A stretch of DNA of 64,000 nucleotides from Prochloron sp. SulCav_FS08_3_32_3330 (GCA_020721205.1 DYNF01000001.1:4419-68418); one strand, 5' to 3'; numbered from the stretch's first letter, positions 7,035-58,119 are shown. Numbers and translations are program-made. Notes: generated by a model from the letters alone, not told the origin.

Positions 7035-7265
7035 ATGAACTATCAAAAAATTATCACAATTGAACAAGGGAAAAGAAGCGGAAAACCCTGCATTAGAGGA
7101 ATGCGAATTACCGTTTATGATATATTAGAATATTTAGCAGGAGGTATGACTGAAGCAGAAATTTTGGAAGACTTTTCTGAATTAACATCAGAAGATATTA
7201 AAGCCTGTCTTGCTTTTGTGGCTGATCGAGAAAAAAAATTATTTCCTGTGGTTTCTATATCATGA
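7035..7265 (+). CDS. DUF433 family antitoxin-like protein (no partner PIN toxin adjacent)
   Basis: GKRSGKPCIRGMRITVYDILEYLAGG...EDIKACLAF. Confidence 0.88.
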   Translation: MNYQKIITIEQGKRSGKPCIRGMRITVYDILEYLAGGMTEAEILEDFSELTSEDIKACLAFVADREKKLFPVVSIS

Positions 7266-7300
7266 TCTAAATTAAAAGTTAAATTTATTTTGTTAATTTT
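7233..7300 (-). pseudogene. Diverged duplicate of the mcrC 3' end
   Basis: About 54/68 nt match (hand count) to 7642-7709; reads INKINLTFNLDHDIETTGNNF vs McrC INIRSLNFALDTDLETTGNNF. Confidence 0.8.
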
Positions 7301-7345
7301 TAATTTGATGCTATAATGATAATTGAACATTTTTTAATAAGAATT

Positions 7346-7561
7346 ATGGATTTTTTAAGCCAAGAAAATCGTCTAAATAAATCAGTAATTACAGTTTCAT
7401 CTTTAACAGATGAGTCTGATGAAAAAGAATATTGGTTTTTAACTACACCCCAAGAAAGATTAACCGCTTTAGAAATAATGAGACAAATTAATTATGGTTA
7501 TGATCCAACTACCGCCAGACTTCAAAGATTTTTTGAAATTGCTGAACTTAAAACAAGTTGA
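7346..7561 (+). CDS. Small hypothetical protein of the type found upstream of nucleotidyltransferase genes
   Basis: DEKEYW...PQERLTALEIMRQINYGYDPTTARLQRFFE; overlaps the start of the remnant below. Confidence 0.65.
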   Translation: MDFLSQENRLNKSVITVSSLTDESDEKEYWFLTTPQERLTALEIMRQINYGYDPTTARLQRFFEIAELKTS

Positions 7562-7596
7562 ATATTTATTAAAACGACTTAGAAAATTTACCTTAA
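7500..7596 (+). pseudogene. Internally deleted nucleotidyltransferase-family gene (N- and C-termini only)
   Basis: MIQLPPDFKDFLKLLNLKQVEYLL joined out of frame to NDLENLP*; family recognised from memory. Confidence 0.65.
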
Positions 7597-7622
7597 TTCT
7601 TACTTTATATTCTTGTGAAATA

Positions 7623-8777
7623 CTAATTAAATAAATCATTTAAAAAATTATTTCCTGTAGTTTCTAAATCCGTATCTAAAGCAAAATTTAAACTTCTAAT
7701 ATTAATTTGTCCAGTGGTAACATTTAAAGATTTTTCTATATTAGGATAAATTAAAATCGCATTTTTACAGTGTTTTTGGGTTGCATAACTAACTATTTGA
7801 TGAAAGTCGGGATGCTTAAATTCTGTTTTATATTTCGTATCTAATACATAACAAGCTTGATCTGTTTTTTTATTATAAATTACTAAATCAATATTAAATT
7901 TTAAATCTTCATTAATTTTGATTCCTTCATGAATTTTAAGTTTAAATTCTGATGGTAAATTTTGTTTTAACCATTGTGCCACAAACTGCTCATAAAGTTG
8001 TGCCATATTCACTAAAAAGGGTAAAGTATTATCATTTCCTTGATGATGACTAGGGGAAAGATGTTGTAAGAAAAAATAACAAATAATGTGCATTATTTCG
8101 TAATCTTGATTTAAACGATTATATTTTCTTTTAATACATTCTTGGGGTTGAAATTGTTTTAATGTAATCGAATATTGTAAAGCATGATAGGCTTTTCTAA
8201 TCCGAGAATGAATATTTTGATTAAACATTTTACTTCGACTTAAACAGTTTAATGTCCATAATAAAATTTGATTTTCTTCTATATCATTAGTTTGATCTTG
8301 ATATTGACAGTTTAATTTAATATTATAGGGTTTTTGGATTAATTTTTTTAGATTAATTTTTCCTTTAATTGTTGTTAATTCATTTTCTCGATTAATATAA
8401 GTTGTATATAAGCCTTTTTTGGTCCGATTAATTATTTTTTCTGTCAAAGAAATCGCAAAGCGATCGCAAAAATCAGTTAAACTTTCACAGTTAGCAATCC
8501 CATCTAAAAAATGAAAACTTTTTAAATTTAAAGCATAGTTTAACATAGCAAATAAATTTTTAATCGAAACTTTAGGATTAATTTTAATCGCAAAATTAGA
8601 ATTTAAAGGAATAAAACCTACCCAGCCTTGAGAAGTTAAAGACATTTTATCTTGACCATTTTTTCTAATAATATTTAATTCAATTTGTTTATAATATTTA
8701 GTTTGAATTAAATCAATAATTTCATCTTGACGAGGAATTATTTTAGTTTTATATTCAGTTAATTCAATGATTTTCAT
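7623..8777 (-). CDS. mcrC: McrC-family restriction nuclease subunit
   Basis: GWVGFI...IKINPK, LVNMAQLYEQFV, ID...VLDTKYK nuclease motif, QIVSYA; directly downstream of mcrB. Confidence 0.88.
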   Translation of the reverse strand: MKIIELTEYKTKIIPRQDEIIDLIQTKYYKQIELNIIRKNGQDKMSLTSQGWVGFIPLNSNFAIKINPKVSIKNLFAMLNYALNLKSFHFLDGIANCESLTDFCDRFAISLTEKIINRTKKGLYTTYINRENELTTIKGKINLKKLIQKPYNIKLNCQYQDQTNDIEENQILLWTLNCLSRSKMFNQNIHSRIRKAYHALQYSITLKQFQPQECIKRKYNRLNQDYEIMHIICYFFLQHLSPSHHQGNDNTLPFLVNMAQLYEQFVAQWLKQNLPSEFKLKIHEGIKINEDLKFNIDLVIYNKKTDQACYVLDTKYKTEFKHPDFHQIVSYATQKHCKNAILIYPNIEKSLNVTTGQINIRSLNFALDTDLETTGNNFLNDLFN

Positions 8778-8805
8778 TCTAATATAATTATATTATTTAA
8801 TATAG

Positions 8806-8859
8806 GTTTGTTGTTGCACTTTAGTGCTATCTTATTTGTGCTAAAGCACCACAACGAAC
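8806..8859. repeat. REP-like inverted doublet (family A: GTTTGTWGTTG + GC-TAAA-GC hairpins)
   Basis: GTTTGTTGTTGCACTTTAGTGC...GTGCTAAAGCACCACAACGAAC; relatives at 10787, 14047/14432, 17845, 25253, 27405, 29541, 41573. Confidence 0.8.
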
Positions 8860-8864
8860 TTTTT

Positions 8865-10475
8865 TTAAATTAAAATTTTATCCTTAATTTTTCCCCAACG
8901 AAAATTACTAATTTTCTCATGATCATCAAAGAAATATTCTTCTAAATAAGGCTCAATTTCCATAAGCCAAATATCTTCAATATTTTCCTTTAATTCTATT
9001 GTTAAAAAGAAAGAAATACCCAATTCATAATGAGGATCATTAATCGTTTTATTTAACTCTTTTAAAACCTTAATTAAACTATCAATATTTAACTGATTAT
9101 TCCCTTTATGATAAGCTTTTAAAATATCATAATTAGAGTTAAGAGTAATAAAAGAAAAACGCCGACGTAAGGCATGATCTACTAAAGCGATCGAGCGATC
9201 AGCCGTATTCATTGTACCAATAATTCTGACATTTTTAGGCATCGAAAAAACCTCATTACTTCCTGCCAATTTAATATTTTGTTCTCGATATTCTAATAAA
9301 TACATTAACTCACCAAAAATAGAAGCAAGATTACCTCGATTAATTTCATCTATGATTAAAACACAAATTCCGTCGCATTTTTGGGCATTTTCACAAAATT
9401 CTAAAAAACGCCCTTTGATCATATTATATTCTAATTGTCCATGATTAGAAATTGGTCTTATTCCTTGAATAAAATCTTCATAACTATAACTAGGATGAAA
9501 TTGTACCAATTCTGAAAATCCATCATTATTACTAATTAAATACTTCGCTAAATATTGAGCTAAAAAAGTTTTACCTGTGCCGGGAGAGCCTTGTAAAATT
9601 ATTTGTTTTTTACGGTTAATTACTTTAATAATTGTTTCAATTTTTTCCTGTTTAAAATAGGTATCTTGACATAAATTTTCAAGGTTATATTCAGGATTAA
9701 TAAATTTTGTTTCAGTTTCTATATCTTCTAAATTTTCTAATTTTGTATAATTTTCTAAACTAACTAAATATTCTTGAATTTTACTTATAGGATCATCATT
9801 AATAGTAATTAAAACTAAAGGAAATAAATTTTGATACATATTAATAATATAATTACTTAATTCCAATTGAGAATAATTTAAGATTTCTTGACGAGGAATA
9901 ATCACAGCAATATGTAAATCTTCTTGGGCAATATTTTGTAACCAACTTTCAGGCGTAATCTGATTTTGACTAACTATTTCTTGATTTTCATTAAGATAAT
10001 AATTATCTCGACTTCCTAAATAAATTTGATTACTAATATTATAAATATTTTTGATTAAATCAATAATATAATTTTGATTATTCTGACAAAAATTTATGAA
10101 TTTATCTCTTTCTTGACTTTCATTTTGACTAATATAAAAACCAAATTCTAAAGTTTCATAATTAAGAAACAAAAATAATTGAACATCCTCTATTTTATTA
10201 CTATTTTTTGTCGAAAAAGTACCCCAAATAAAATCAGGAGTTTTATTTTTGATATAATAATTTTTGGGAGAAAATAAATTTTTTTCCGTTTCCATTAAAT
10301 CAGTAATTTCTAAAGGAAGTTGAGAAGCAATATAACTAAATAAAGTCTTAAAAGGATTTTCTACATATTGTTTAAATTCGTCTTTATTTTTATCATAAAA
10401 TTCTTTATTAGGGTTATCATGTAATTGTTTTAATAAGGCAAAAGTTTGGCTATTAAAATAAGATTTTTCATTCAT
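8865..10475 (-). CDS. mcrB: McrB-family AAA+ GTPase with N-terminal DUF2461-like domain
   Basis: GSPGTGKT, VQFHPSYSYEDF, IIDEINRGN, MNTADRS, DHALRRRF; N-terminus FALLKQLHDNPNKEFYDKNK resembles DUF2461. Confidence 0.9.
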   Translation of the reverse strand: MNEKSYFNSQTFALLKQLHDNPNKEFYDKNKDEFKQYVENPFKTLFSYIASQLPLEITDLMETEKNLFSPKNYYIKNKTPDFIWGTFSTKNSNKIEDVQLFLFLNYETLEFGFYISQNESQERDKFINFCQNNQNYIIDLIKNIYNISNQIYLGSRDNYYLNENQEIVSQNQITPESWLQNIAQEDLHIAVIIPRQEILNYSQLELSNYIINMYQNLFPLVLITINDDPISKIQEYLVSLENYTKLENLEDIETETKFINPEYNLENLCQDTYFKQEKIETIIKVINRKKQIILQGSPGTGKTFLAQYLAKYLISNNDGFSELVQFHPSYSYEDFIQGIRPISNHGQLEYNMIKGRFLEFCENAQKCDGICVLIIDEINRGNLASIFGELMYLLEYREQNIKLAGSNEVFSMPKNVRIIGTMNTADRSIALVDHALRRRFSFITLNSNYDILKAYHKGNNQLNIDSLIKVLKELNKTINDPHYELGISFFLTIELKENIEDIWLMEIEPYLEEYFFDDHEKISNFRWGKIKDKILI

Positions 10476-10512
10476 TTTTTTTAATAATGTTGTTTATTTT
10501 TTTATATAGGAT

Positions 10513-10751
10513 CGCTATGAAATTTATTTCATAGCTAATAGCTAAAATCTGCTAAAGCGATTATTTTTCTTAATTTGATAATATAAAATATAAGATTAAT
10601 TTTAATAAGTCTAGTCGCTTTAGCTGACTTCTGCTATTAGCTTTGAAATTTATTTCAAAGCGGGTATAATACTTTAAGAATTAACTTTTAATAATTGACT
10701 CGCAATGAAATAAATTTCATTGCTAACAGCAAAAGTCGGCTAAAGCGACTA
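10513..10751. repeat. Three alternately oriented ~50-bp two-hairpin REP-like elements (family B, BIME-like)
   Basis: Copies at ~10513-10562 (+), ~10612-10662 (-), ~10701-10751 (+); core hairpin GCWWTGAAAT-NN-ATTTCAWWGC. Confidence 0.75.
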
Positions 10752-10789
10752 AACAAATGTAATTTTATACCAGACTTTGAACATTAGGG

Positions 10790-13700
10790 CTAAAGCCCAA
10801 CTACAAACAAGTCCTCCATTTCTTTAATAATTTTCATCGTTTCTATACTCACAGTCGTAACTCTTTTTAATAAATCAATTACGGTTTCTTTATAATCAGC
10901 AAAACAATAATTATTGAATTTTTCGGCAATAGTTGGATCCTTTGGTTTTTTCTCTTTATATTGATCTAATATCCATTCTAATGCTGATCTATTTCCTAAT
11001 TTATATTCCCATACTTCGGGAGGAATTTCTGTTAATGTTGTTACATCATCTAAGATTATTTCATTTTTGATTTTATCGGCTTTTAATTTAGGTTTAAGTT
11101 GCTGATTACTTTTGAATTTTGAATTTTGAATTTTGAATTTATATGGTTTAATTGTTTCATAATTTAAGTGTAAATCCATTAATTTTTTACCCCAATTTAC
11201 CCACATATAAAAATCATCATAAAAGGGGATTCTCGGAAATTCTCTCTTTAAATTTAATTCATATTTCTTTCTATATTCAGGATTATGTAACACAGCATAA
11301 ACATAATAAAATATATTTTCTTTGGTAATTTCATTTTGAATTTTATAATATTCCCTAAACTTTTCTAATCCCCAATCTGTTATATTTTCTTGTCTTTTCC
11401 CTTCTTTATCATAAGTATATAAAGGTAAGCATTGAGTTTTTTCTAAAATATCTAAACAAAATATTTGATTAGTTGCTAATACTGAAAATGATTTAGATGA
11501 ACTTGTCCCTGAAAACATTATTAGCAGATTATTCTTAGTTAAACTTGAGGAAAAGATTTCATAATGATTAGAAGTTAGTCGATCTGATAATATTTTTTCA
11601 GAGTAATATAATTTACTAATAAAAGGACGATAATAAAATTTAACAATTAAATCTTGATCAAAATTTAATTTACTATAATTTGATAAATTAGTTTTTAAAG
11701 TAGCACTCCATTTAATCCGATAATCTAAATTATCATTTTTTTGATTTTGTTCTTTCTGATCATTATAAATTTTGAGAAAATATAATATTTTTTCAATTAA
11801 CTTTTCAGAATTTTCATCTGTTACCCATTCATCTCTTGCTGTTACAACACCATTAGAATATAACTTAAAAATAGCTTTTTCTTCAGCTTTATTTTTAGAT
11901 AATTTTGTTTCTTTATTCGCTACAGAAATTAAACTATCAAAATCATTTTCATCTGCTAAATTAATCCAATTATTATTTTGATCGGGAATAATATGATCAA
12001 AATCAATCTGATCTAATTTATAAGATGATAAAAATTGAAGTTTATCAATAGCTAACTCCTCATCAGGGCGAGAAGTATAATATATTTTACAAGGTGTCTT
12101 ATTTTGGTTATTTTTCTTAATTAAAAAACTAATAGCTACCCCTGTTTGAATACCAAAAACATTATGAGTAGTACCTGCAATTTTCGGATTTTTTCTCACA
12201 TCTCCATCTAAATCAATAATATAAATTTCACTAAATTCTTGACTAACTAATTTTCTAAAACCATCAAAAGTTCTCGCATTAATAAAAGAAGAATTAGTAA
12301 TAAAAGCAATAATTCCATTTTCATTTAATCTATCTGTTGCCCATCGAAAAAAGCGAGAATACATATCATAAACTTTAGTTTTTTGTGCCGTACTTTCCTT
12401 AACATAAGTAGCTTTAATTCTTTTATCTATAGCCGGATAATCACGATTTTTATTATTATCATTTTCATTTTGTTGATTAGCATTATAGGGAGGATTACCA
12501 ATAATTACGGAGATTTTCTTCTCATTTTGTCGTTTAATTCTTGCCGTATTTTCCAAAGACATCGCAAACATATCCATCTGTTTCCCCTCAAAAGAAGTAT
12601 GATCCAAAGTATCAACAAAACAGATATTATTAAACTCTAAATATTCCCCCATTTTTTGCTGATAAGAATACTCAATATTAAGATTAGCAATATAATAAGG
12701 TAAAATCGAAACTTCATTACAATGAATTTCATTTTGATACTTATATTTTAAATCTTTAGTTAATAAAAATTCTAAAATTTCCGTAATAAAAGTACCCGTG
12801 CCAGTGGCTGGATCTAATATTTCTACTCCTTGATCACCTAAACTTTTTTGAAAATGTTTATGTAATAAATAATCCGTACTTTCTACCATAAACTTTACAA
12901 TTTCATTAGGCGTATAAACGATACCCAATCTATCAGCCGCCAAAGGATTATAAGCCTTATAAAAATTCTCATAAACCACCTTTAAAAACTTCTGTTTTTC
13001 GTGGTGATTAACAATATTACTAGCAGTGCGAATAATCACACTATAATAACTTTCAATCGTCTTTAAAGTATTGCGTTTAAGATTACCAGTAAAGAAAGTT
13101 TTGATCACATTTTGTAACTGTAAAGCGATATTATTTTCCTGATGAAATTGACTTTCATTAAAAATATTATTAAAAATATCTTCCGTTAAAATATGTTGAA
13201 TAATCATCTCTCGAATATCATCCACATTAATATTAGAATTAATGGAATCTTGACAAACTTTTAAAAATTCCAGAAATTTTTGTTTAAATTCTGTATTATT
13301 GCCCTCACCCCCAGCCCCTCTCCCACTGGAGAGGGGAGTTTTTTCGTTAATTGATCCAGATCCCCCCCCTCGCCCTTGGGAGAGGGGGGCAGGGGGGGTG
13401 AGGGCTAATTCTTGATTAATTAAATTTCTTAAAGTATTAATAATTGTGGGTAAATCTTCCTTAAAAGAATTAATTGCTTGACGAAAATCCTTAACTTCTG
13501 CCCTTTCAAAATCTAAAAATTGATTAATAATTTTATCTAAATCTTCAGGATTTTTCATATCAATCCTTAAAGATTCTATGCCATTTTGAATTAAAATAGC
13601 GGTATTAGTATCCTCAAAAATAATATTATCCGTAGGATATCCTTTAGCAATTTTCGCCTCAATTTCTGCCTCTAAACTATCTTTTTCATCCTTCGCTTCC

Positions 13701-13933
13701 CAATAACCCCAATCAAGCCTTAAAGCATCTTTAATAATACCATCAATGCGAACTTTTGTACCTAACTTAGTCGCAAAATGTAACTCATCAACTAAAATAA
13801 AATCTCGACTTTTGCAATAATTATTAAGTAAATTACCAAAAGCAAAACGAATAGATTGCTCATTGCGACTACCGCCAAAACGGATCCGATCTTCTAAATC
13901 TTTATAATATTGATTAATGAGAATACGAGACAT
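10790..13933 (-). CDS. Single-chain restriction-modification enzyme: nuclease-like N-terminus, N6-adenine MTase, Type ISP-like specificity domain; no helicase
   Basis: RIDG...YWEAK; GIVYTPNEIV; ILDPATGTGTF; GNPPY; C-terminal YVYAVLH...FPRIP...YKLGNRSALEWILDQY; start taken at MSRILI. Confidence 0.85.
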   Translation of the reverse strand: MSRILINQYYKDLEDRIRFGGSRNEQSIRFAFGNLLNNYCKSRDFILVDELHFATKLGTKVRIDGIIKDALRLDWGYWEAKDEKDSLEAEIEAKIAKGYPTDNIIFEDTNTAILIQNGIESLRIDMKNPEDLDKIINQFLDFERAEVKDFRQAINSFKEDLPTIINTLRNLINQELALTPPAPLSQGRGGGSGSINEKTPLSSGRGAGGEGNNTEFKQKFLEFLKVCQDSINSNINVDDIREMIIQHILTEDIFNNIFNESQFHQENNIALQLQNVIKTFFTGNLKRNTLKTIESYYSVIIRTASNIVNHHEKQKFLKVVYENFYKAYNPLAADRLGIVYTPNEIVKFMVESTDYLLHKHFQKSLGDQGVEILDPATGTGTFITEILEFLLTKDLKYKYQNEIHCNEVSILPYYIANLNIEYSYQQKMGEYLEFNNICFVDTLDHTSFEGKQMDMFAMSLENTARIKRQNEKKISVIIGNPPYNANQQNENDNNKNRDYPAIDKRIKATYVKESTAQKTKVYDMYSRFFRWATDRLNENGIIAFITNSSFINARTFDGFRKLVSQEFSEIYIIDLDGDVRKNPKIAGTTHNVFGIQTGVAISFLIKKNNQNKTPCKIYYTSRPDEELAIDKLQFLSSYKLDQIDFDHIIPDQNNNWINLADENDFDSLISVANKETKLSKNKAEEKAIFKLYSNGVVTARDEWVTDENSEKLIEKILYFLKIYNDQKEQNQKNDNLDYRIKWSATLKTNLSNYSKLNFDQDLIVKFYYRPFISKLYYSEKILSDRLTSNHYEIFSSSLTKNNLLIMFSGTSSSKSFSVLATNQIFCLDILEKTQCLPLYTYDKEGKRQENITDWGLEKFREYYKIQNEITKENIFYYVYAVLHNPEYRKKYELNLKREFPRIPFYDDFYMWVNWGKKLMDLHLNYETIKPYKFKIQNSKFKSNQQLKPKLKADKIKNEIILDDVTTLTEIPPEVWEYKLGNRSALEWILDQYKEKKPKDPTIAEKFNNYCFADYKETVIDLLKRVTTVSIETMKIIKEMEDLFVVGL
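13301..13405. repeat. GC-rich palindromic repeat inserted in frame in the R-M gene
   Basis: 105 bp (35 codons) with inverted ends GCCCTCACCCCCAGCCCCTCTCCC...GGGAGAGGGGGGCAGGGGGGGTGAGGGC inside an AT-rich gene. Confidence 0.85.
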
Positions 13934-14067
13934 AATATTATTACCTAAAAATTTTATTTTAATGTTAGCATAATTAGACACAAAAATAATATTCCTTATT
14001 TTGTATCAAACGTAAAATTTTACCTCTCTACTGCCTTACCTTAGTCGGGCTAAAGCCCTACAGGGAG

Positions 14068-14421
14068 AGGGCGTTTTTATTCTTTTTTTTGCAACAGATT
14101 AAAATCTGTTGCTACCCAAACGAAACCCGTCTTTACGGGTTTTCTGATTAAATATTAACTAATATTAAAAAAATTCAACCTGCGTAGGCAGGTTTTGCTT
14201 ATGTAGCAACGGGTTTCAACCCGTTGCTTTTTGGAAAATGAAAACGCCCTGCTACAGGGAGCAGGGCGTTTTCATTCTTTTTTTTGCAACAGATTAAAAT
14301 CTGTTGCTACCCAAACGAAACCCGTCTTTACGGGTTTTCTGATTAAATATTAACTAATATTAAAAAAATTCAACCTGCGAAGGCAGGTTTTGCTTATGTA
14401 GCAACGGGTTTCAACCCGTTG
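14068..14421 (+). mobile_element. Two tandem copies of MITE-1 (TIR CAGGGCGTTTTCATTC) inside a family A REP
   Basis: Copies 14068-14251 and 14262-14421 (second lacks right TIR); 10-bp direct repeat CTACAGGGAG at 14058, 14252, 14422. Confidence 0.85.
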
Positions 14422-14547
14422 CTACAGGGAGAGGGCTAAAGCCCTACTACAAACTTTTTTAGATAAAATAATATTTAGGAATAGCTACTTATTTGTTCAT
14501 TAACTATTAAAATAAGAACTAAATATTGATTATTAATTATTAATTAC

Positions 14548-16686
14548 ATGATGATACCACAGGAATCTTTAGAACAAGCTTTAAAACAGTTTTTTGGTTA
14601 TGATACTTTTCGCCCCGGGCAAAAAGATATTATTGAAAAAGCCCTCACGAATCAAGATTTATTAGTAATAATGCCCACCGGAGGGGGTAAATCTTTATGT
14701 TTTCAACTTCCTGCTTTACTAAAAAAAGGTCTCACGATTGTGGTTTCTCCTTTGATTGCTTTAATGCAGGATCAAGTTGATAGTTTATTGGATAATGGTA
14801 TTGGTGCAACTTTTCTCAATAGTACCTTAAATTGGGATGAATTAAAATCAAGAGAATTGGCAATTTTAAATGGTAAAATTAAGTTGTTATATGTGGCACC
14901 AGAAAGATTATTGAGTGAGAAATTTTTGTTTTTTTTAGATAGGTTAAAAAATAGTATTGGTATTTCTGGTTTTGCGATTGATGAGGCTCATTGTGTATCA
15001 GAATGGGGGCATGATTTTCGCCCTGAATATCGCAAAATGATCCTGTTACGTTACCGTTATTCAGATATTCCTATTATGGCTTTAACTGCTACTGCAACGG
15101 AGCGAGTTAAAGAGGATATTGTTAAACAATTAGGTTTACAAAATGCTGAGACTTATTTAAGTAGTTTTAATCGTCCTAATTTATATTATGAAGTTAGACC
15201 GAAAGAACGTCAAAGTTATAATGAATTATTAACTTATATTCGTACTAATAAAGGGGCAGGAATTATCTATTGTTTAAGTCGAAAAAATGTAGATGAATTA
15301 ACTTTTAGATTACAACAGGATAATATTTCAGCTTTACCTTATCATGCGGGTTTAAATGATGAAGTTAGAAGTACAAATCAAAATCGTTTTATTCGAGATG
15401 ATGTGAGAATTATTGTAGCAACAATTGCTTTTGGTATGGGGATAAATAAGCCTGATGTAAGGTTTGTGATTCATTATAATTTACCTCGAACTTTAGAAAA
15501 TTATTATCAAGAATCGGGTCGGGCTGGAAGGGATGGAGAACCTGCTAAATGTATCTTATTTTTTACTTTTAGTGATATTAAAAGAGTGGAATATTTAATT
15601 GATCAACAAAGTGATGAAACTCAACAAAAAATTTCCCGTCAACAGTTAAGAAAGATGATTGATTATTCAGAAGGGACTGAATGTAGAAGGATTATTCAAC
15701 TTAGTTATTTTGGGGAAAAATTCAAGGGAAATTGTCAAAATTGTGATAATTGTTTACAGCCAAAACCTGTAGAAGATTGGACGATAGAATCCCAAAAGTT
15801 TTTATCTTGTGTAGCAAGGACTAAGGAAAGATTTGGGATTACTCATATTATTGATGTTTTAAGGGGATCAAGTAAGAAGAAAATTATGCAATATGGACAT
15901 CATTTATTATCAACTTATGGCATCGGAAAAGATCGCACTGTAGAGGAGTGGAGAATGTTAGGAAGGTCTTTACTTCATCAAGGATTAATATCAGAAACTA
16001 CTGATGGTTATTCGGTTTTAAAATTGAATAAAAAGAGTTGGGAAATTTTAAAAAAAGAAAGAGATGTTAAAATTGCTGTTACTTTAAGTAAAAAAGATCA
16101 ATTATTAAAAGAATATAATTTAAAAAATGCGGAAGGTGAAATTTTATTTGAAAGATTAAAAGGTTTAAGAAAATATATTGCTGACTTACATTCCATTGCA
16201 CCTTATGTAATTTTTCCTGATTCAACTTTAAGATTAATGGCACAAATGAAACCTCAATCTTTAACTCAATTTGCTAATATTTCTGGTATAACTGAATATA
16301 AATTAAAGCAATATGGAGAACAATTTTTATCAGAAATTAGAAGTTTTTGTCAAGAGCAAACTTTACCGATAAAATTACCTTCTGATAGTGAAATGATAAC
16401 CTTAAGTTTACATCAACAAGGTTTAAATGTTAATAAAATTGCTGAAGTCAGAGGTTTAGCTATTAGTACAATTTATACGCATTTAAGTAATTTAATTGAG
16501 ATGAGACAACCTGTCGAAATTAGTCATTTAATTTCAGTAGAAAAACGTCAAGAAATTGTGAAAGTTATTGATGTTAAAGGAGACGTTTCTTTAACACCAA
16601 TTAAAGAGGAATTAGGGGACAATTATAATTATAATGAAATCCGTTTAGTGCGCTCATGGTGGCGTAAATCTAATCGGACTTGCTAG
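14548..16686 (+). CDS. recQ: ATP-dependent DNA helicase RecQ
   Basis: MPTGGGKS, DEAHCVSEWGHDFRP, TAT, QESGRAGRDG, Zn-binding RQC, HRDC. Confidence 0.97.
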   Translation: MMIPQESLEQALKQFFGYDTFRPGQKDIIEKALTNQDLLVIMPTGGGKSLCFQLPALLKKGLTIVVSPLIALMQDQVDSLLDNGIGATFLNSTLNWDELKSRELAILNGKIKLLYVAPERLLSEKFLFFLDRLKNSIGISGFAIDEAHCVSEWGHDFRPEYRKMILLRYRYSDIPIMALTATATERVKEDIVKQLGLQNAETYLSSFNRPNLYYEVRPKERQSYNELLTYIRTNKGAGIIYCLSRKNVDELTFRLQQDNISALPYHAGLNDEVRSTNQNRFIRDDVRIIVATIAFGMGINKPDVRFVIHYNLPRTLENYYQESGRAGRDGEPAKCILFFTFSDIKRVEYLIDQQSDETQQKISRQQLRKMIDYSEGTECRRIIQLSYFGEKFKGNCQNCDNCLQPKPVEDWTIESQKFLSCVARTKERFGITHIIDVLRGSSKKKIMQYGHHLLSTYGIGKDRTVEEWRMLGRSLLHQGLISETTDGYSVLKLNKKSWEILKKERDVKIAVTLSKKDQLLKEYNLKNAEGEILFERLKGLRKYIADLHSIAPYVIFPDSTLRLMAQMKPQSLTQFANISGITEYKLKQYGEQFLSEIRSFCQEQTLPIKLPSDSEMITLSLHQQGLNVNKIAEVRGLAISTIYTHLSNLIEMRQPVEISHLISVEKRQEIVKVIDVKGDVSLTPIKEELGDNYNYNEIRLVRSWWRKSNRTC

Positions 16687-16778: not shown

Positions 16779-17744
16779 ATGAGTGAAATTACCGCTAATT
16801 ACGATGAAACTTGGAAAGAAGCAATAGGAGACTATTTCGAGTCATTCCTGATATTTTTTTATCCAGAAATTCATCAACAAATAGACTGGCAAAAAACCCC
16901 AATTTCTTTAGATAAAGAACTAGAACAAATAACAGCCTCGGCGGAAACCGAAAAGCGTTATGCTGATAAATTATACAAGGTTTGGTTACTAAATGGTCAA
17001 GAAATTTGGATTTTAATTCATATTGAGATCCAAAGTCAATATGACAAAGAATTTCCCCTGCGAATGTTTATCTATAACTATCGTGCTTTTGACTTATATC
17101 ATCAACCTGTAATTAGTTTAGCTATACTAGGAGATGAAACTAAATCTTGGCGACCTAATTCTTATCAATATGGTTTAGGAAAAAGTCAATTAAAATTAGA
17201 TTTTTCCATTGTTAAACTTTTAGATTATTCTGAGGAGGAATTATTAGAAAGTAATAATATTTTTGCTATCGTAGTTATGGCACATTTAAAAACTAAAGCA
17301 ACTACGAGTAATTTAACAGCAAGAGAACAATGGAAATGGACTTTAACCCGTTTACTTTATGAAAAAGGTTATAATCGAAAACAAATTGTTGATTTATACA
17401 AAGTCATTGATTTAATGATGAGTTTATCACAAGATTTACAACTAAGTTTTGAACAAAAATTAACTAAATATCAGGAGGAAAGAAAAATGCCTTTATTAAG
17501 TAATATTGAAAGACGCGCTTGGGAAAAGGGTGAACAAAAAGGAGCTAAAGAAACTTGTCAACAAAATATTATTGATTTACTCAAAGCTCGTTTTAATACT
17601 TTACCCGAAAGCTTAATTACTACTATCAAAAATTTTGATGATTTAGCTTTTTTAAAACAGTTACATTTAACAACAATTACTGTTAATTCTCTAGCTGAAT
17701 TTGAGCAATTAATTCATCAAAATCGTACTAATAGTGGTAGTTAA
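16779..17744 (+). CDS. Rpn/YhgA-like PD-(D/E)XK family protein (cyanobacterial multicopy family)
   Basis: YDETWKEA, LDKELEQI, RYADKL, LIHIEIQSQ, RMFIYNYR. Confidence 0.8.
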   Translation: MSEITANYDETWKEAIGDYFESFLIFFYPEIHQQIDWQKTPISLDKELEQITASAETEKRYADKLYKVWLLNGQEIWILIHIEIQSQYDKEFPLRMFIYNYRAFDLYHQPVISLAILGDETKSWRPNSYQYGLGKSQLKLDFSIVKLLDYSEEELLESNNIFAIVVMAHLKTKATTSNLTAREQWKWTLTRLLYEKGYNRKQIVDLYKVIDLMMSLSQDLQLSFEQKLTKYQEERKMPLLSNIERRAWEKGEQKGAKETCQQNIIDLLKARFNTLPESLITTIKNFDDLAFLKQLHLTTITVNSLAEFEQLIHQNRTNSGS

Positions 17745-41206: not shown

Positions 41207-41227
41207 AATATAGACGACTTGGCTCTC

Positions 41228-41667: not shown

Positions 41668-41669
41668 TA

Positions 41670-42608: not shown

Positions 42609-42690
42609 AATAATTAGAAATTAAATATAAATGATTAAATATTTTATTATAAATTGTCAAATTACACCAAAATATAAAAAAATTAATTAA

Positions 42691-42792
42691 TATAGCAGAG
42701 AACGAGTTGCTTAGGACATATATTTTCCGTATCTGTCAGTATTACTTGGTTCATAAAGATAAAGTGTCCTAACAAACTCATTCTGTGCTATA
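42691..42792. mobile_element. MITE-3 (TATAGC-ended, ~28-bp TIRs)
   Basis: TATAGCAGAGAACGAGTTGCTTAGGACA / TGTCCTAACAAACTCATTCTGTGCTATA. Confidence 0.75.
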
Positions 42793-42801
42793 TTTACAAT
42801 T

Positions 42802-42870
42802 ATGATTATCAAAAAAATTAAAACAATTTAAAATTTAATTTTGTCAAAGCTAGATTATTTAATAGAAATT
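42802..42870 (+). pseudogene. Diverged duplicate of the 5' end of the 44062 methyltransferase
   Basis: MIIKKIKTI*NLILSKLDYLIE vs MIFKKVINLKNLVLSKLDNLLD (12/22 identical, no gaps). Confidence 0.65.
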
Positions 42871-42885
42871 AAGGACATTATACTA

Positions 42886-43881: not shown

Positions 43882-43957
43882 GTGAATACACATATATCCT
43901 TGTGTAGAAAGCTTTACAACTATTGCTAATGTTCTCATTCAACTGCACACCGCTATA
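43863..43957. mobile_element. Degenerate TATAG-ended MITE overlapping the sulfotransferase stop
   Basis: TATAGGGGTTTGCGATTGAGTGAATACA / TGTTCTCATTCAACTGCACACCGCTATA. Confidence 0.6.
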
Positions 43958-44061
43958 TATCAATTTAAGAAAATAGTTGACAGAAATAACCAAAGTAAGC
44001 TAGTCTAACTTTATTACTTTATATTTGGTAAATATAATTTTATAGGATAAGGAGTGGAACT

Positions 44062-44928: not shown

Positions 44929-44969
44929 AAGTTACTTACTCAACTGCAAAAATAAGGTTTAAATTAATT

Positions 44970-45512
44970 ATGCTTAAGATGATAAACAGTATTTTAAAAC
45001 TTTTCAAAATGAAGTTAATAGAGGATAATGCTTTGAAGTTCAAGCAAAAAGGTATTAACGTTGAAATTCATGCAACCAGCCAAATTATTAACCCAGAAAA
45101 AATTATTATTGGTGATGGTACTCAATTAAGTATAGGGGTAGTGATATGGGCAAATACAGATGATGATATTATCATAGGTAAAGATTCAAATATTAATGCT
45201 TATAGTTTTGTTCAAGGTAAAGTATCTATAGGGAATCATGTCATGATATCTCCATTATCCGCCATCTTTGGTGGAAGCCACGATTTTTCAGATATTTCTA
45301 AGCCGATGAAGTATCAAGGTGGGACAATTAAAGGCATTGTAATCGAAGATGACGTTTGGATAGGCTCTCATTGTGTTATTTTGGATGGAGTTAAATTGGG
45401 TAAAGGGTGTATTATTGCAGCTGGTGCTGTTGTCACAAAAGATGTGGAAGAATATACCATTGTGGCTGGGATTCCAGCCACAAAGATTAAGAGTAGAAAA
45501 TCAACTTCCTAA
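44970..45512 (+). CDS. Hexapeptide-repeat (LbH) O-acetyltransferase
   Basis: IVIEDDVWIG, IIAAGAVVTKDV, VAGIPA. Confidence 0.9.
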   Translation: MLKMINSILKLFKMKLIEDNALKFKQKGINVEIHATSQIINPEKIIIGDGTQLSIGVVIWANTDDDIIIGKDSNINAYSFVQGKVSIGNHVMISPLSAIFGGSHDFSDISKPMKYQGGTIKGIVIEDDVWIGSHCVILDGVKLGKGCIIAAGAVVTKDVEEYTIVAGIPATKIKSRKSTS

Positions 45513-45585
45513 ATCATTTTTTTAAGTGAATCAACTAAATCATTATCAATTTTATCTAAATAAATATACATTCTTAATCGAAAAA

Positions 45586-53780: not shown

Positions 53781-55430
53781 ATGAAAAATATTCAATTAAA
53801 TAAGCTGAACAACTTTTACCCTTATTTAGTTTTGTTCCTGTTTATTTCGCCTAGCATAGTGTGGATAATTCTGGATCAGCGAGTCTTTCCTTGGGATCAA
53901 GCTTGGTATGGACAAGTATCAGTAGAATTGTTTTATCGTTTAATCCATACTCCTTTAGACTGGTTTAAAGACATGATTTCTGCTTTTGGGATTAAAGCAC
54001 CCGGAGTCGCTTGGTTAGGACAATTTTTTGTTCCTCTTGGTCAGCTTATTGGCTCAATTGAAATCGGATTACTGTTATCAATAATAGTAACTCAATTTAG
54101 TGTTTTATTACTTATTTATCCCATAATTTTAAAATTAACAAATAGTAGATTAATTTCTGTTATTTGCTGTCTTTTCGCATCTTCTTCTCCTTTATCAGTA
54201 GGATTAAATCATCAGTATCTTGTTGAACCTTTACAAACTCTTTCTATAACTTGGATTATTCTGATCATGGTTTTTGCACCACAATGGGATAGTAAGAGAA
54301 TTATTCTCCATTTAATTAGTGCCGTATCATTAGCAATGATCGCCAAAATAACTTCTCCCTTATATTCTTTTGGGGCAATATTAGTTATTTTATATCATGT
54401 TTATAACAACAGAAATATAAATAAAAACCTTACACAAGTTAACTCTAAAAATTTGTTATCGAAAATCAAACCTTTATATATTACCACTTTTTTATTAATC
54501 AGTGGATTTTTATTATGGTATGGCAAAAATTTAGCAAATATTTTGTCATTTACTATTCAAGCATCTTCAGGTGAAGCATCACTTTTATATGGAGAAAAGG
54601 CAAGTTTTTTACCTAAAATACAATATTGGTTATCTTCTTTTCAAAAAAGTTTTTTTGCTCCTATTTCTTTAGTTTTTATTATTGCACTCTTGATTTATGT
54701 TTTGATAAAAGTTTTTTTCGACTTTAAAAAAGCTTTCACACCAATTAAATTAAGTTATTTTGATATATGTAATATTGTTTCTGTAGTAGAAATATCTTTA
54801 GTTTTGATCCTCTTTAGTTTTCAAGTCAATCAAGAAAACAGATATTTACTACCAATAATACCTTATTTAGCTATTATTTTAGCTTGGATATTAAAAAAAG
54901 TAAATCAAAAAATGATAGTGGCTTTTATTGGAGGTTTATTCATATTACAATTATTCATGGTACAAGGTCAATCATTGGGTTTAACTTCCGTAAATTCTAA
55001 TTTATCATATTGGTTATATCCAGTAGATACAAATAATAACAATAAACAATTATTAACAAAAGTAGTAGATGCTACCTGTAGTCAAAAAGAAAAAGAAAGA
55101 TATAATATTATTGGTTTAGAATTGCCTTGGTTTAATGCCAATTCAGCCGCATATTTTTCTGCCAAGCAATTGCTAACAAAAGACTTTCATTGTTACTATA
55201 CCTCATTGGGATACGCTGAGAAAGATATAGAAAAAGCATGGCAAAGATTATTTGATTTGAATATTAATTATTTTGCCACTTTACAACCTGAATTACAACC
55301 TAAACCAGCTAATCCATTAAATGAAGTTTCTTTACCTATGCTAAACCAAATTACAAAAAGTTCAAAATTTAAACTAGACTCATCTATTGATAATTCATCA
55401 ATTTTATTGTATAAAAAAGTTAGTCCTTAA
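53781..55430 (+). CDS. Polytopic membrane protein, probably GT-C (ArnT/PMT-like) glycosyltransferase
   Basis: Many TM segments; WDQAWY loop after TM1; RYLLP motif. Confidence 0.7.
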   Translation: MKNIQLNKLNNFYPYLVLFLFISPSIVWIILDQRVFPWDQAWYGQVSVELFYRLIHTPLDWFKDMISAFGIKAPGVAWLGQFFVPLGQLIGSIEIGLLLSIIVTQFSVLLLIYPIILKLTNSRLISVICCLFASSSPLSVGLNHQYLVEPLQTLSITWIILIMVFAPQWDSKRIILHLISAVSLAMIAKITSPLYSFGAILVILYHVYNNRNINKNLTQVNSKNLLSKIKPLYITTFLLISGFLLWYGKNLANILSFTIQASSGEASLLYGEKASFLPKIQYWLSSFQKSFFAPISLVFIIALLIYVLIKVFFDFKKAFTPIKLSYFDICNIVSVVEISLVLILFSFQVNQENRYLLPIIPYLAIILAWILKKVNQKMIVAFIGGLFILQLFMVQGQSLGLTSVNSNLSYWLYPVDTNNNNKQLLTKVVDATCSQKEKERYNIIGLELPWFNANSAAYFSAKQLLTKDFHCYYTSLGYAEKDIEKAWQRLFDLNINYFATLQPELQPKPANPLNEVSLPMLNQITKSSKFKLDSSIDNSSILLYKKVSP

Positions 55431-55440
55431 TCTCAAATAT

Positions 55441-56565
55441 ATGTTTAGCAGTCAACAACTTCAGAAGATAAAAGATATTTCCATTAAGAAATATGATTAT
55501 ATTGATGCTCTTAGGGGCTTTGTAATATTAGGCGTTATTCTTGTTCATACATCACAATGGGTAGTGCCAACATCTGTTTTTCTATCTCAATTAGTAGCAG
55601 AAGGAGCCAGGGGGGTGCAACTTTTTTTCATAGCAAGTGCCTTAACCTTATTTTTATCAATGAAAGCAAGGAAACAGTATGAACCACAACCATTGCTCAG
55701 TTTTTATATCAGGCGATTTTTTAGAATTGCTCCTCTTTTTTACTTAGCTATTATTGTTTATACATGGCATGATGGAATGTCCCCAAGCTATTGGGCACCC
55801 AATGGAATTGAATGGTGGCATATTCTGTTGACAGTCTTTTTTCTTCATGGATGGAATCCAGAAACAATTACATCTGTTGTTCCAGGTGGCTGGTCAATTG
55901 CGGTTGAAATGACGTTTTATTTATTTTTACCCTATCTTTTTATAAAGTTAAATAACGTCAAATCTAGCTTGATTGCTTTATTTGGTTCTCTACTTGTAGC
56001 AAAATTGGCATCAACTGTACTGCTGTTTTTATTTTCTCCCAACTATCCAGATACTCAACAATATTTAGTTTATACTTTTTCTACTCTCTGGTTTTTCTCA
56101 GAATTACCGATATTTATCTTAGGAATATTGCTGTATCATATTATCACAAAATGTCCTGATAAAGATAGAACAGTTGGATTGCTCTTTTTATTTGTTTCAA
56201 TTTTTCTATTTATCGCATTTTTAACCCCGCAGACTTTTAATGATTTGTTACCCAAACATTTTTTATATGGAATTGCTTTTCTCTTTTTTGCGTTATCATT
56301 ATATTTCTATCCAAACGAATTTTTAGTTAATAAGATCACTATCTTAATCGGTAAACTGAGTTTTAGCTTATATCTAGTACATTTTATGGTTTTAAATAAA
56401 ATAGCACAATTTATCAAAATTACACCTGGAGATATTGGATTTATTTTAGCTTTTCTGTTATGTTTACTTTTTTCAATTCTTTTTTCATATATTACCCATA
56501 ATTTGATAGAAATTCCTGGAATTCGCCTTGGCAAAAAAGTGATAGAAAAAGTGAGATTTTCTTAA
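55441..56565 (+). CDS. Acyltransferase-3 (OafA-like) O-acyltransferase
   Basis: IDALRG...VH, GVQLFF, RRFFRIAP, WSIAVEMTFY, SFSLYLVH. Confidence 0.9.
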   Translation: MFSSQQLQKIKDISIKKYDYIDALRGFVILGVILVHTSQWVVPTSVFLSQLVAEGARGVQLFFIASALTLFLSMKARKQYEPQPLLSFYIRRFFRIAPLFYLAIIVYTWHDGMSPSYWAPNGIEWWHILLTVFFLHGWNPETITSVVPGGWSIAVEMTFYLFLPYLFIKLNNVKSSLIALFGSLLVAKLASTVLLFLFSPNYPDTQQYLVYTFSTLWFFSELPIFILGILLYHIITKCPDKDRTVGLLFLFVSIFLFIAFLTPQTFNDLLPKHFLYGIAFLFFALSLYFYPNEFLVNKITILIGKLSFSLYLVHFMVLNKIAQFIKITPGDIGFILAFLLCLLFSILFSYITHNLIEIPGIRLGKKVIEKVRFS

Positions 56566-56632
56566 CCTAAGAGGTACTCAAAATTATAAAAAATAATCAA
56601 CTCTCTACAGCTTAGATATACTAGATTATATC

Positions 56633-56711
56633 AAAAAAAAGCTCAAAATTGAATTTAAAATAATCTATTGATAATTCATCCATTTTATGGTATAAACAAG
56701 TCAGTCCTTAA
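56633..56711 (+). pseudogene. Diverged duplicate of the 3' end of the 53781 GT-C gene
   Basis: 56663-56711 matches 55382-55430 at 45/49 nt including the stop codon; weaker similarity upstream. Confidence 0.85.
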
Positions 56712-56724
56712 ATATCAAATGTTT

Positions 56725-58119
56725 ATGTTTACTAATCAACAACTGCAAAAATGGCGAAAGAGAAACTTATACTACTACAAAGACTTGGAACTTTTTTACC
56801 AGTTTTGGGTTGAACCTAATACCCGTGTATTGGAGGTAGGAAGTGGGTTAGGAGATTTGCTGAATATAGTAAAACCTAGTTATGGTTTAGGTATTGATGT
56901 CAACCCTTTAGCAGTAGAAAAAGCTAAGGATAAATATGATCATCTTAACTTTGAAGTGCTTGATGCTGAAGACTTAATCACAGAAGAAATATTTGATTAT
57001 ATATTATTGGCAAACACAATCAGCTATGTCAGTGATATTCAGAAAGTTTTTGATAATTTGCGGAAATTATGTCATTCATCTACAAGAGTTGTTCTAACTT
57101 TTCATAATCCCGGATGGGAGTTGATTCTTCGGTTAGCTACATTGCTTAGGCAAAGAATGCCTGTACCTTCTCTCAATTGGCTAAATTTAGAAGATATTGA
57201 AAACTTACTAAATTTGACCAATTTTGAAGTAATTGAACATGGAAAACGTTGTATTTTTCCTAAAAATATTCCTCTTGTATCAGGATTTTTAAATAAGTTT
57301 ATTGCTCCTTTACCTTTTTTCAATCAGTTTTGTTTAACTGAATATATCATTGCTAGACCTCGTATTGAGGCTTACGAGTCCCAAAACAATCTAAGAGAAT
57401 TAAGCTGTTCTGTGATTATTCCTGCACGGAATGAAGCAGGAAATATAGAAAGTTGTATTACTCGAATGCCAAAACTAGGGAAACATACCGAAATTATTTT
57501 TATTGAAGGTCATTCCAGTGATAATACTTGGGAAGAAATTCAAAGAGTACAAAATAAATATCAAGATCAATGGGATATCAAAATTTGTCAGCAAACGGGG
57601 AAAGGGAAAGGAAATGCTGTGAGAGAAGGTTTTGCGATGGCACAAGGAGATATTCTGATTATTTTAGATTCAGATTTAACCGTTCGTCCTGAAGATTTAA
57701 TTTATTTTTTTAATGCGATCGCATCTGGTCGTTGTGAATTTGCAAATGGATGTCGTCTAATTTATCCTGTATCTGAGGACACTATGCCTTGGCTGAACCG
57801 CATGGCAAACCGTTTTTTTGCTTGGTTACTATCTTATTTACTTAATACTAAAATCAAAGATTCACTTTGTGGAACTAAAGTATTAAAAAAAATTCATTAT
57901 CAAAGAATAGCTCAAAATCGCAGTTATTTTGGCGATTTTGACCCTTTTGGGGATTTTGATTTGCTTTTTGGAGCTTCTAAATTAGGTTTACAGATTCACG
58001 ATATTCCCGTAAGATATATGCCTCGTACCTATGGTCAATCCAATATTCAGCATATCAAAGAAGGATTCGTTTTACTCAAAATATGTTTATATGCGGCTAA
58101 AAAAATTAAGTTTATTTAA
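56725..58119 (+). CDS. Methyltransferase-like domain fused to GT2 (polyprenol-phosphate glycosyltransferase-like)
   Basis: VLEVGSGLG; SVIIPARNEAGNI, GKGNAV, LDSD, DSLCGTK, DPFGDFDLLFG. Confidence 0.88.
   Translation: MFTNQQLQKWRKRNLYYYKDLELFYQFWVEPNTRVLEVGSGLGDLLNIVKPSYGLGIDVNPLAVEKAKDKYDHLNFEVLDAEDLITEEIFDYILLANTISYVSDIQKVFDNLRKLCHSSTRVVLTFHNPGWELILRLATLLRQRMPVPSLNWLNLEDIENLLNLTNFEVIEHGKRCIFPKNIPLVSGFLNKFIAPLPFFNQFCLTEYIIARPRIEAYESQNNLRELSCSVIIPARNEAGNIESCITRMPKLGKHTEIIFIEGHSSDNTWEEIQRVQNKYQDQWDIKICQQTGKGKGNAVREGFAMAQGDILIILDSDLTVRPEDLIYFFNAIASGRCEFANGCRLIYPVSEDTMPWLNRMANRFFAWLLSYLLNTKIKDSLCGTKVLKKIHYQRIAQNRSYFGDFDPFGDFDLLFGASKLGLQIHDIPVRYMPRTYGQSNIQHIKEGFVLLKICLYAAKKIKFI

Follow-up and report, generated by a model that had tools for sequence, protein, structure and literature searches.

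Several loci in a 64,000-nucleotide stretch of the genome of Prochloron sp. SulCav_FS08_3_32_3330 (GCA_020721205.1, DYNF01000001.1:4419-68418; G000:C125:4419-68418 in our numbering), referred to below as the window, carry small accessory genes that lie between two diverged, directly repeated copies of a piece of a resident gene. These loci are probably the footprints of insertion with long target duplication, which would not depend on an integrase. A preliminary description of the window, made from its sequence, had proposed the integrase-free insertion of cassettes at gene termini, and this proposal was borne out: the accessory genes were bracketed by the repeats, and a search for tyrosine recombinases returned no match in the genome.

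All four repeat pairs named in the preliminary description were found at or near the positions where it had placed them, every one in direct orientation, but they were not equally strong. Three were significant in a genome-wide self-BLAST: the 3' end of mcrC (7233-7299 versus 7642-7708; 67 nt, 80.6% identity, E = 6e-8), a piece of wzt (40229-40281 versus 41411-41463; 53 nt, 92.5%, E = 8e-13), and the end of a membrane protein gene, designated GT-C in that description, together with the start of the next gene (55355-55466 versus 56636-56750; 115 alignment columns, 81.7%, E = 1.6e-21). The fourth, at the start of a methyltransferase gene (42798-42869 versus 44058-44130), was a gapped alignment with a score of 46, for which no match was obtained at a genome-wide E<=1. 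The three strong pairs had no third genomic copy at E<=1, and the copies in the window were spaced 0.4-1.3 kb apart from start to start. The mcrC and GT-C copies were located at gene ends, as had been described, whereas the wzt copy was internal and corresponded to the ABC signature motif. The cargo in the window consisted of an 81-aa open reading frame (ORF), a toxin-antitoxin (TA) pair, a sulfotransferase gene and an acyltransferase gene; it included no set of restriction and modification genes. In agreement with the earlier remark, the 48 window ORFs scanned included no integrase or transposase family, and an integrase with an att core in a tRNA or gene end was likewise absent. The only tRNA gene of the window (31861-31949) was located away from the repeats.

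The clearest of the window loci is that of GT-C and the acyltransferase gene. GT-C (53781-55430, plus strand) encodes a polytopic membrane protein of 549 aa without a Pfam family, in which a 19-residue hydropathy scan revealed 12 hydrophobic stretches, overlapping in part and all confined to residues 1-400. Copy A (55355-55466, plus strand) comprises the live end of this gene, a short spacer, and the first nine codons of a methyltransferase-GT2 fusion gene (MT-GT2), which now form the start of the inserted gene, an OafA/YrhL-like member of the acyltransferase_3 family (55441-56565, plus strand). In copy B (56636-56750, plus strand), a short spacer separates a dead GT-C end, which contains a stop codon, from the live MT-GT2 start (gene 56725-58119, plus strand; ATG at 56725). 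The acyltransferase begins with MFSSQQLQK and the MT-GT2 protein with MFTNQQLQK. Residues 1-9 of the acyltransferase did not align with any of its 10 homologues, the start methionine of which falls on Ile10; thus, the acyltransferase is read from the duplicated MT-GT2 start, and its own start is chimeric. Among the 400 other genomes of the order that were searched, the 549-aa gene was present only in G230, where GT-C was followed directly by the orthologues of MT-GT2, MT261 and the epimerase, with no acyltransferase gene. The repeated stretch occurred once at this junction, but G230 is a distant genome: copies A and B agreed with each other at 91 of 113 positions and with the G230 stretch at 76 of 113 and 77 of 116 positions, respectively (66-67% identity). 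The named homologues of the acyltransferase belonged to Desulfobulbus, Chloroflexota, Mariprofundus, Pelagicoccus and Kuenenia, i.e., to other phyla, with 46-63% identity; this distribution suggests that the gene was acquired from outside the cyanobacteria.

The same architecture was recovered in the rest of the genome. In a whole-genome self-BLAST, matches of 40-200 nt with 70-97% identity on the same contig were counted by distance and orientation. Direct matches exceeded inverted ones at 0-1 kb (391 versus 75), 1-2 kb (139 versus 37) and 2-3 kb (85 versus 35), whereas beyond 6 kb the two orientations were about equal. For isolated two-copy pairs, which had neither a third genomic copy nor a collinear neighbour, 53 direct pairs versus 4 inverted ones were obtained at distances below 3 kb (binomial p = 6e-12), compared with 28 versus 20 at 3-30 kb. 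The recurrence of the architecture, as claimed in the preliminary description, was therefore beyond chance genome-wide. Eighteen of the 53 direct pairs were located within one ORF and represented protein repeats, 3 were adjacent paralogues, and 32 bracketed inserted DNA, mostly TA genes. These 32 brackets, namely the three strong window pairs and 29 pairs elsewhere, enclosed 0.4-2.7 kb and were situated at the starts or ends of ordinary genes such as metH, carB, rnpA, murT and hypF, between pntA and pntB, and behind eno, gltB, chlH and ileS. Pfam TA families (HicA/HicB, ParE, PIN, BrnT/BrnA, Phd, MNT, UPF0175) were identified in the cargo of 14 of the 29 brackets outside the window, and the majority of the rest contained either paired small ORFs that lack an annotation or small genes of a defence-like kind (PDDEXK_3, DUF3800, an AAA_21 partner).

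The association with toxin genes was also evident when these genes served as the starting point. The genome had 49 matches to PIN, 26 to ParE and 32 to HicA, and 92 of these genes were evaluable for repeats with a score of at least 50 between their 1.5-kb flanks. Direct flank repeats were detected around 35 of them (38%) and inverted ones around 6. The corresponding numbers were 23 and 8 for 400 random sites, 33 and 14 for 300 other small ORFs, and 18 and 10 for 300 mid-size ORFs, so that direct repeats were enriched around toxin genes with odds ratios of 10 and 5 (Fisher p <= 2e-8). In five other genomes of the order, of which G008, G011 and G016 are single-contig assemblies, direct flank repeats accompanied 8 of 30 HicA genes and inverted ones none.

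Repeats outside the window were 36-551 nt long, and the identity of isolated direct pairs ranged from 65 to 100%, mostly 80-85%. Young cases were present among them. The start of a RAMP gene was duplicated around a HepT/MNT pair (91 nt, 98.9% identity), and the end of a Mg-chelatase subunit gene around an NYN-domain gene (44 nt, 97.7%). In the finished genome G008, which belongs to another family, a HicBA pair was inserted within a HigBA-like pair with a 551-nt duplication of 97% identity (G008:C1:2814513-2817674); one toxin gene remained whole to the left of the insert and one antidote gene to its right. From repeats that are 98-100% identical and occupy unique sites, we infer that the duplicate was made in situ at the moment of insertion.

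Two further toxin-rich regions and a repeat class deserve description. Two families of long intergenic hairpins, often present on both sides of TA pairs, have the stems AAAGTCGGGGATTT, with 286 exact copies, and AAGGTGGGCAA, with 72. On contig C2 (G000:C2:38000-57999), at least seven cassettes were aligned between chlH and a cytochrome b561 gene (about 5170-16200 of that segment, or 43.2-54.2 kb of the contig). They comprised Gp49/HigB with an HTH partner, three HicBA pairs, DUF5615/DUF433, SocA-Panacea and a Type ISP restriction-modification enzyme, and were separated by the same repeat of 70-140 nt in one orientation, which gives the array an integron-like look in a genome without a tyrosine recombinase match. 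Between pntA and pntB, which encode transhydrogenase subunits, two TA pairs were found, one with HicA and one with PIN_2 (G000:C195:1015-7478).

With regard to possible enzymes, the tyrosine recombinase family PF00589 had no match at E<=0.001 in this 99.4%-complete genome, and the same search yielded matches in all 14 control genomes. Serine recombinases had three matches, all on contigs other than that of the window. Rpn-like nucleases were also considered as the agent and rejected: the genome contains 15 DUF4351 genes, and nothing ties them to the joints.

A course of events that may account for these observations is as follows. Foreign or relocated DNA with one to a few small genes would join the chromosome in such a way that a target of 40-550 bp comes to stand on both sides of it. 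The target would typically include codons from the very start or end of a resident gene and the adjacent non-coding DNA, often with a terminator hairpin, and the resident gene would remain whole on one side, with a dead copy of its end on the other. Subsequently, the dead copy would decay, and the live copy would change mostly synonymously or be replaced by ordinary allelic recombination. The ribosome-binding site and initial codons duplicated from the gene downstream can be taken over by an inserted gene, and a site-specific recombinase would play no part. The two ends of the incoming DNA would be joined 40-550 bp apart, perhaps across a resected break or to separate copies of a multi-copy chromosome; our guess for the route is end joining at a break in such a chromosome, in a staggered or two-copy manner, which cannot be distinguished here from a template-switch route. 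Selection would retain the events with at least one joint outside a gene and with intact neighbours, and hairpin-rich gene ends are perhaps preferred as break sites. Arrays such as that on contig C2 would result from several insertions at one site. The flanking direct repeats would also feed the homologous recombination of the host, leading to amplification, for which the protease array described below would be an example, and probably to excision.

At the mcrC locus, the bracketed segment of 342 bp (7300-7641) contained the 81-aa ORF (7316-7561, plus strand), for which neither Pfam nor NCBIfam gave a match, and behind it the debris of short ORFs. The dead copy of the mcrC 3' end (7233-7299, minus strand) reads INKINLTFNLDHDIETTGNNFF, and the live gene reads INIRSLNFALDTDLETTGNNFL at the corresponding place (live end 7642-7708, minus strand; mcrC, 7623-8777; mcrB, 8865-10475). 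On its other side, the dead copy meets an antitoxin-like DUF433 gene (7005-7265, plus strand; Pfam E = 7e-24), which has no adjoining DUF5615 partner. The DUF433 homology overlaps the remnant by 12 nt (AAAAAATTATTT), and the last DUF433 codons are read from the remnant. As all DNA matches of the DUF433 gene in relatives end at window position 7244 (query position 1245) or earlier and the remnant begins at 7233, the joint must lie inside the shared AAAAAATTATTT.

The weak fourth pair brackets the sulfotransferase gene (42841-43881, plus strand), the listed TTG start of which is located inside the upstream copy, with an alternative ATG at 42886. This copy (42798-42869, plus strand; local gapped alignment) reads MIIKKIKTI*NLILSKLDYLIE, with a stop at codon 10, and the live start region (44058-44130, plus strand) of the gene for a 288-aa methyltransferase (44062-44928) reads MIFKKVINLKNLVLSKLDNLLD. 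The score of 46 was reached in none of 500 local dinucleotide shuffles; among genomic window pairs of equal spacing, it was reached by 4 of 1500 in direct and 2 of 1500 in inverted orientation. Given the many positions and spacings open to scanning, the pair is plausible but weak; its placement exactly on the start codon, just upstream of the inserted gene, lends it support. If the pair is accepted, the layout of this locus matches that of GT-C.

The distance between wzm, an ABC-2 permease gene (36542-37438, plus strand), and wzt, which encodes a short ABC ATPase (39784-40521, plus strand; repeated core at 40229-40281), was 2345 nt, with an array of protease genes in the gap; in all three relatives with orthologues, it was at most about 30 nt, but a repeat of this junction was not demonstrable (score 23). 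The TA pair (40624-41206, plus strand) stands after wzt and before the wzt relic. Its toxin belongs to the RelE/ParE family and is Gp49/HigB-like (40624-40974; NCBIfam TIGR02683, E = 5e-36), and the putative antidote (40877-41206) had a faint match to PF21716 only (E = 0.005). The repeated piece of wzt, the ABC signature motif LSSGMVARLGFAIATDI, is situated about 240 nt before the live stop codon. In the relic (41411-41463, plus strand), this core is surrounded by weak similarity across about 41350-41490; both sides are truncated, and no further similarity to wzt was found downstream (score 16). The relic agreed with the live wzt at 49 of 53 nt and with the orthologues of three other genera at 37-41 of 53.

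The protease sequence at 37733 had been regarded as a fifth scar of the same kind; it turned out to be the edge of a tandem array of 4.2 units with a 472-bp period (37733-39715). A leading partial unit, R0 (37733-37827, plus strand), copies the last 95 nt of the protease gene and is 88% identical to the last end of the array. It is followed by four units of 472 bp (37828-39715, plus strand), each of which encodes a clan AA aspartic protease of 165 aa. Units 1-3 were identical, and unit 4 differed from them at 7 sites, all in the last 95 nt. The internal unit ends were hybrid, with a left part similar to the last end and a right part similar to R0. Together with the identity of units 1-3, this is exactly the product that unequal crossing-over between the bracketing outer 95-nt repeats would give. 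A target duplicate around the array was sought and discarded: the 20-nt similarity between the DNA after wzm and that before wzt had a score of 23, which is at chance level. A second copy of the aspartic protease gene, with 84% protein identity, is located on another contig (G000:C65:27182-27640).

Empty sites, i.e., uninterrupted gene junctions, were present in relatives at the GT-C/MT-GT2 junction (G230) and between wzm and wzt (three of three relatives), but in distant genomes and at two loci only. The 40 relatives found were all related at the level of the order, and the genome collection held no genome of the same genus or family. Polarisation of the differences by an outgroup was dismissed, the nearest genomes being those of other families.

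The preliminary description also stated that many differences between the copies are synonymous and that the copies are different functional alleles and not decayed duplicates. In the window, this was true of wzt (4 synonymous differences versus 0 non-synonymous) but not of mcrC (2 versus 7 changed codons) or of the GT-C end (4 versus 6, including a stop), where the changes were mostly non-synonymous. The positions of differences within codons at the three window loci (6/8/14) were not significantly non-random (p = 0.16). The test was then considered for 14 coding overlaps in the frame of the live gene; the MT-GT2 start was dropped from the position count because its columns were mostly non-coding and both copies are in use. 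The pooled differences were distributed over the codon positions as 29/29/58 (p = 7e-4 versus uniform), and the changed codons of all 14 overlaps comprised 44 synonymous and 62 non-synonymous ones, with 5 stops. A third-position share of about half is about what would be expected of one constrained and one decaying copy (0.46 by our own unfitted estimate). The codon-position test is consequently non-discriminating, since a live and a decaying copy give about the same pooled bias as two alleles. The heterogeneity of the pattern among loci was not significant (p = 0.07). Differences were mostly non-synonymous, with stops, in six cases (mcrC, GT-C end, rnpA, gmd, murT and AAA_21), the copies of which look decayed.

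A number of observations weigh against insertion with long target duplication as the sole explanation. The relatives compared were only 55-72% identical in protein and belonged to other families, and no exact single-copy empty site was obtained from them. The wzt relic is an internal piece, 890 nt beyond the end of the live gene and not at an insertion joint, and its 4 differences, all synonymous, are not those of a decaying copy; extra events or a different origin are needed for it. Allele-like copies were found elsewhere as well, with 7 of 7 differences synonymous in metH and 10 of 14 at third positions in carB. At the mcrC locus, the final 19 nt of the gene are absent from the remnant, which runs into the DUF433 gene, so that this locus calls for two events or more. 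For the protease array, the number of units is that of the 209-contig assembly and hence provisional. Finally, 14 of 32 distinct pairs flanking toxin genes were unique, and the remaining 18 belonged to small dispersed families around long hairpins; these 18 pairs are explained equally well by recombination at repeats that were already in place. A PIN_2 toxin and antitoxin cassette on contig C88 (G000:C88:12096-17295, locus 2001-3200) was permuted and comprised 1.33 units, with terminal repeats of 299 nt (99.7% identity) that span the 3' end of the toxin gene, a spacer, and the first 12 codons of the antitoxin gene. Such a permuted copy cannot be a target duplication, and its single-copy ancestor must have been circular or tandem. 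Together with the dispersed-repeat cassettes, it suggests that the first insertion was followed by a stage of circles or crossovers.

The last two observations are central to an alternative in which a cassette is excised via its flanking repeats as a circle with one repeat copy and re-enters by a single homologous crossover at a similar stretch, be it the corresponding gene end of a different strain or one of the dispersed hairpin repeats, whereby the arrangement of repeat, cargo and repeat is rebuilt. Besides the permuted cassette and the pairs in dispersed families, with their hundreds of exact stem copies, the amplification and the hybrid unit ends of the protease array and the array of cassettes on contig C2 are consistent with such a cycle, and a virus-like life cycle has been proposed for restriction-modification genes in PMC2853133. 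Nevertheless, the cycle leaves unexplained how the arrangement first arose at a unique gene end, and many of the pairs share only 70-85% identity across 50-70 nt, their identical runs measuring about 15 nt, which makes them poor substrates for RecA unless they diverged later. As an account of the window loci, this cycle appears improbable.

The mechanism suggested as an example in the preliminary description was homology-facilitated illegitimate recombination (HFIR), in which DNA of a relative with the gene end beside the cargo recombines homologously within the resident gene, and its far end is joined illegitimately upstream of the resident end; the gene is completed by the donor end, and the displaced resident end is left as a scar. 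The exclusively synonymous differences of wzt and metH and the predominance of third positions in carB would agree with two once-functional alleles. The 12-nt microhomology at the junction of the DUF433 gene and the mcrC remnant and the lack of a tyrosine recombinase match would also agree, and a ComEC homologue makes DNA uptake conceivable, although the control E. coli genome has one too. Still, wzt, metH and carB do not require HFIR, because later allelic replacement of the live gene yields the same pattern. The six decayed-looking copies speak against it, and the pooled codon bias equals that of a live and a decaying copy, without significant heterogeneity. Repeats with 98-100% identity would need a near-identical donor, and with both flanks homologous a double crossover would result, leaving no duplicate. 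The chimeric start of the acyltransferase gene would have to pre-exist in the donor, so that the origin of the junction between gene end and cargo is merely moved to an unseen donor, and the named homologues of the acyltransferase are from other phyla. In Acinetobacter and pneumococcus, HFIR usually deletes recipient DNA and does not duplicate it, which we count against this mechanism; a literature search for HFIR in combination with duplication returned nothing relevant. HFIR is accordingly regarded as unlikely, if somewhat less so than the remaining alternative. That alternative holds that the copies are unrelated to insertion, being relics of replaced alleles or paralogues from the mosaic turnover of defence and glycan clusters, or chance or dispersed-repeat similarities, that simply happen to be close to small genes. 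The internal position of the wzt relic, the weakness of the methyltransferase-start pair, the existence of dispersed hairpin families, and two gmd paralogues with a gmd fragment just outside the window could be cited for it. It is already disfavoured and very improbable: the direct bias of 53 to 4 is confined to distances below 3 kb, a third copy is absent from the genome for the pairs counted, the cargo is adjoined by a copy at either side, with copy boundaries that coincide with gene starts and ends, and TA loci are enriched five- to ten-fold.

The assembly that contains the window consists of 209 contigs with a total length of 4.73 Mb and a G+C content of 32.4%. The genome includes genes for Mg-chelatase (chlH), PsbP-like, CCB1, XisI and slr0373-family proteins, and the sequence GCGATCGC is present in 1586 copies; both features suggest a cyanobacterium. 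In the window, gyrA and smc are followed by a group of defence genes (DUF433, mcrC, mcrB and one for a Type ISP restriction-modification enzyme), then by housekeeping genes and, from 36.5 kb on, by an ABC-transporter-type glycan cluster with wzm, wzt, fcl and many methyl- and glycosyltransferase genes. Two public sequencing runs contained 95-96% of the words sampled from positions 37000-46999. Other repeats were observed in the window: a 71-nt pair with 75% identity in the interval from mcrB to the Type ISP gene (10493 and 10681); a 195-bp tandem duplication at 14068-14451 (189 nt, 93% identical), between the Type ISP gene and recQ; and seven head-to-tail units of 32-34 nt with a small hairpin (AGTGCTAAAGCAC) at 29502-29773, between genes of a TRM methyltransferase and an M28 peptidase. 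A 321-aa ORF at 16779-17744 had no Pfam family and showed a sub-threshold match to the Rpn recombination-promoting nucleases (E = 1e-4). Just beyond the end of the window (G000:C125:67819-75288), the two GDP-mannose dehydratase (gmd) paralogues surround an Rpn-like (DUF4351) gene, and a 73-nt gmd fragment is located upstream of the pair, which is a further sign of mosaicism in the glycan cluster.

The movement of chromosomal TA modules and single accessory genes without a transposase or an integrase is poorly explained at present. If the flanking target duplicate is a footprint of insertion, it can be read in a single genome, and insertions can be found and roughly dated without a comparison of strains. 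The turnover of TA and glycan genes would then be linked to a mobility mode proposed for restriction-modification genes, and the flanking repeats would be a substrate for changes in copy number, both amplification and loss. There are also consequences for annotation: dead copies create false upstream starts (TTG at 42841, 55387 and 56668), and at least one gene of the window, that of the acyltransferase, has a chimeric start derived from its neighbour. More tentatively, a general recombinase-free cassette pathway might operate in this cyanobacterial order, whereby gene ends and terminator hairpins would be the entry sites of TA modules, small defence genes and individual glycan-modifying genes, with long target duplications of variable length. 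Repeated hits would then build integron-like arrays, the flanking repeats would allow amplification, excision and transfer, and the divergence of the copies would date the insertion. We consider such a pathway possible, though doubtful.

Comparison with known systems showed that the window loci are neither integron cassettes nor elements carried by an integrase. The array on contig C2 resembles integron cassettes in that the units are small or promoterless, many are TA pairs, and the imperfect palindromic repeats have one orientation. In contrast to the situation in integrons, no tyrosine recombinase (IntI) match was obtained in the genome, and the window repeats are pieces of resident genes and not attC sites. 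In the folded repeats, inspected by eye without an attC model, the AAC/GTT boxes were at the inner and not the outer end of the stem; the hairpin repeats were dropped as candidate attC sites on account of the missing integrase and the misplaced boxes. With integrative elements by which the target gene's 3' end is restored (att sites in tRNA or protein genes), the loci share a target gene that stays whole and, beyond the insert, an incomplete copy of its end, but they differ from such elements in having no integrase and no tRNA target, in the variable length and position of the repeats, and in inserts of 0.3-2.7 kb. HFIR in naturally transformable bacteria is said to have been studied by de Vries and Wackernagel in 2002 and by Prudhomme et al. 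in 2002. HFIR is similar to the present loci in being integrase-free, with one stretch of homology beside foreign DNA and microhomology at the other joint, but it does not predict the systematic duplication, the near-identical young repeats, or the chimeric start observed here.

The closest counterpart is insertion with long target duplication, the original description of which reportedly goes back to Nobusato et al. in 2000 (Gene 259:99). The preliminary description was not aware of such a systematic signature in cyanobacterial glycan and defence loci, but this mode is in print for restriction-modification genes. Furuta, Abe and Kobayashi (2010; PMC2853133) report direct repeats of 41-423 bp with about 86-100% identity between left and right, around short inserts; these repeats occur nowhere else in the genome, reach into the 3' ends of adjacent genes and have no mobility gene linked to them. 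Every restriction type is represented there, Type IV among them, with one case from Microcystis, and gene fusion at a joint, amplification via the repeats, and a virus-like cycle are discussed. A later review assigns the mode to restriction-modification systems only (Mruk and Kobayashi, 2013; PMC3874152). No report of it was found for TA cassettes or cyanobacterial glycan genes, in a search that left subscription journals largely uncovered. By the criteria of PMC2853133, the window loci belong to this class in structure and not in cargo. They share with it direct repeats of more than 30 bp (67, 53, 72 in the weak pair, and 112-115 nt) that are not high-copy at these loci, inserts of less than 20 kb, and the absence of a linked integrase or transposase. 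They differ from it in that the cargo consists of TA pairs, defence-like genes and glycan-modifying genes instead of restriction and modification genes, in a far higher frequency, with 38% of the toxin genes tested, and in the age of many repeats, which are 70-85% identical. The cargo and the frequency seem to be new, as more than a third of the toxin genes tested in this genome and about a quarter of the HicA loci in five others are involved, and so does a glycan-modifying gene that has borrowed its start from a neighbour.

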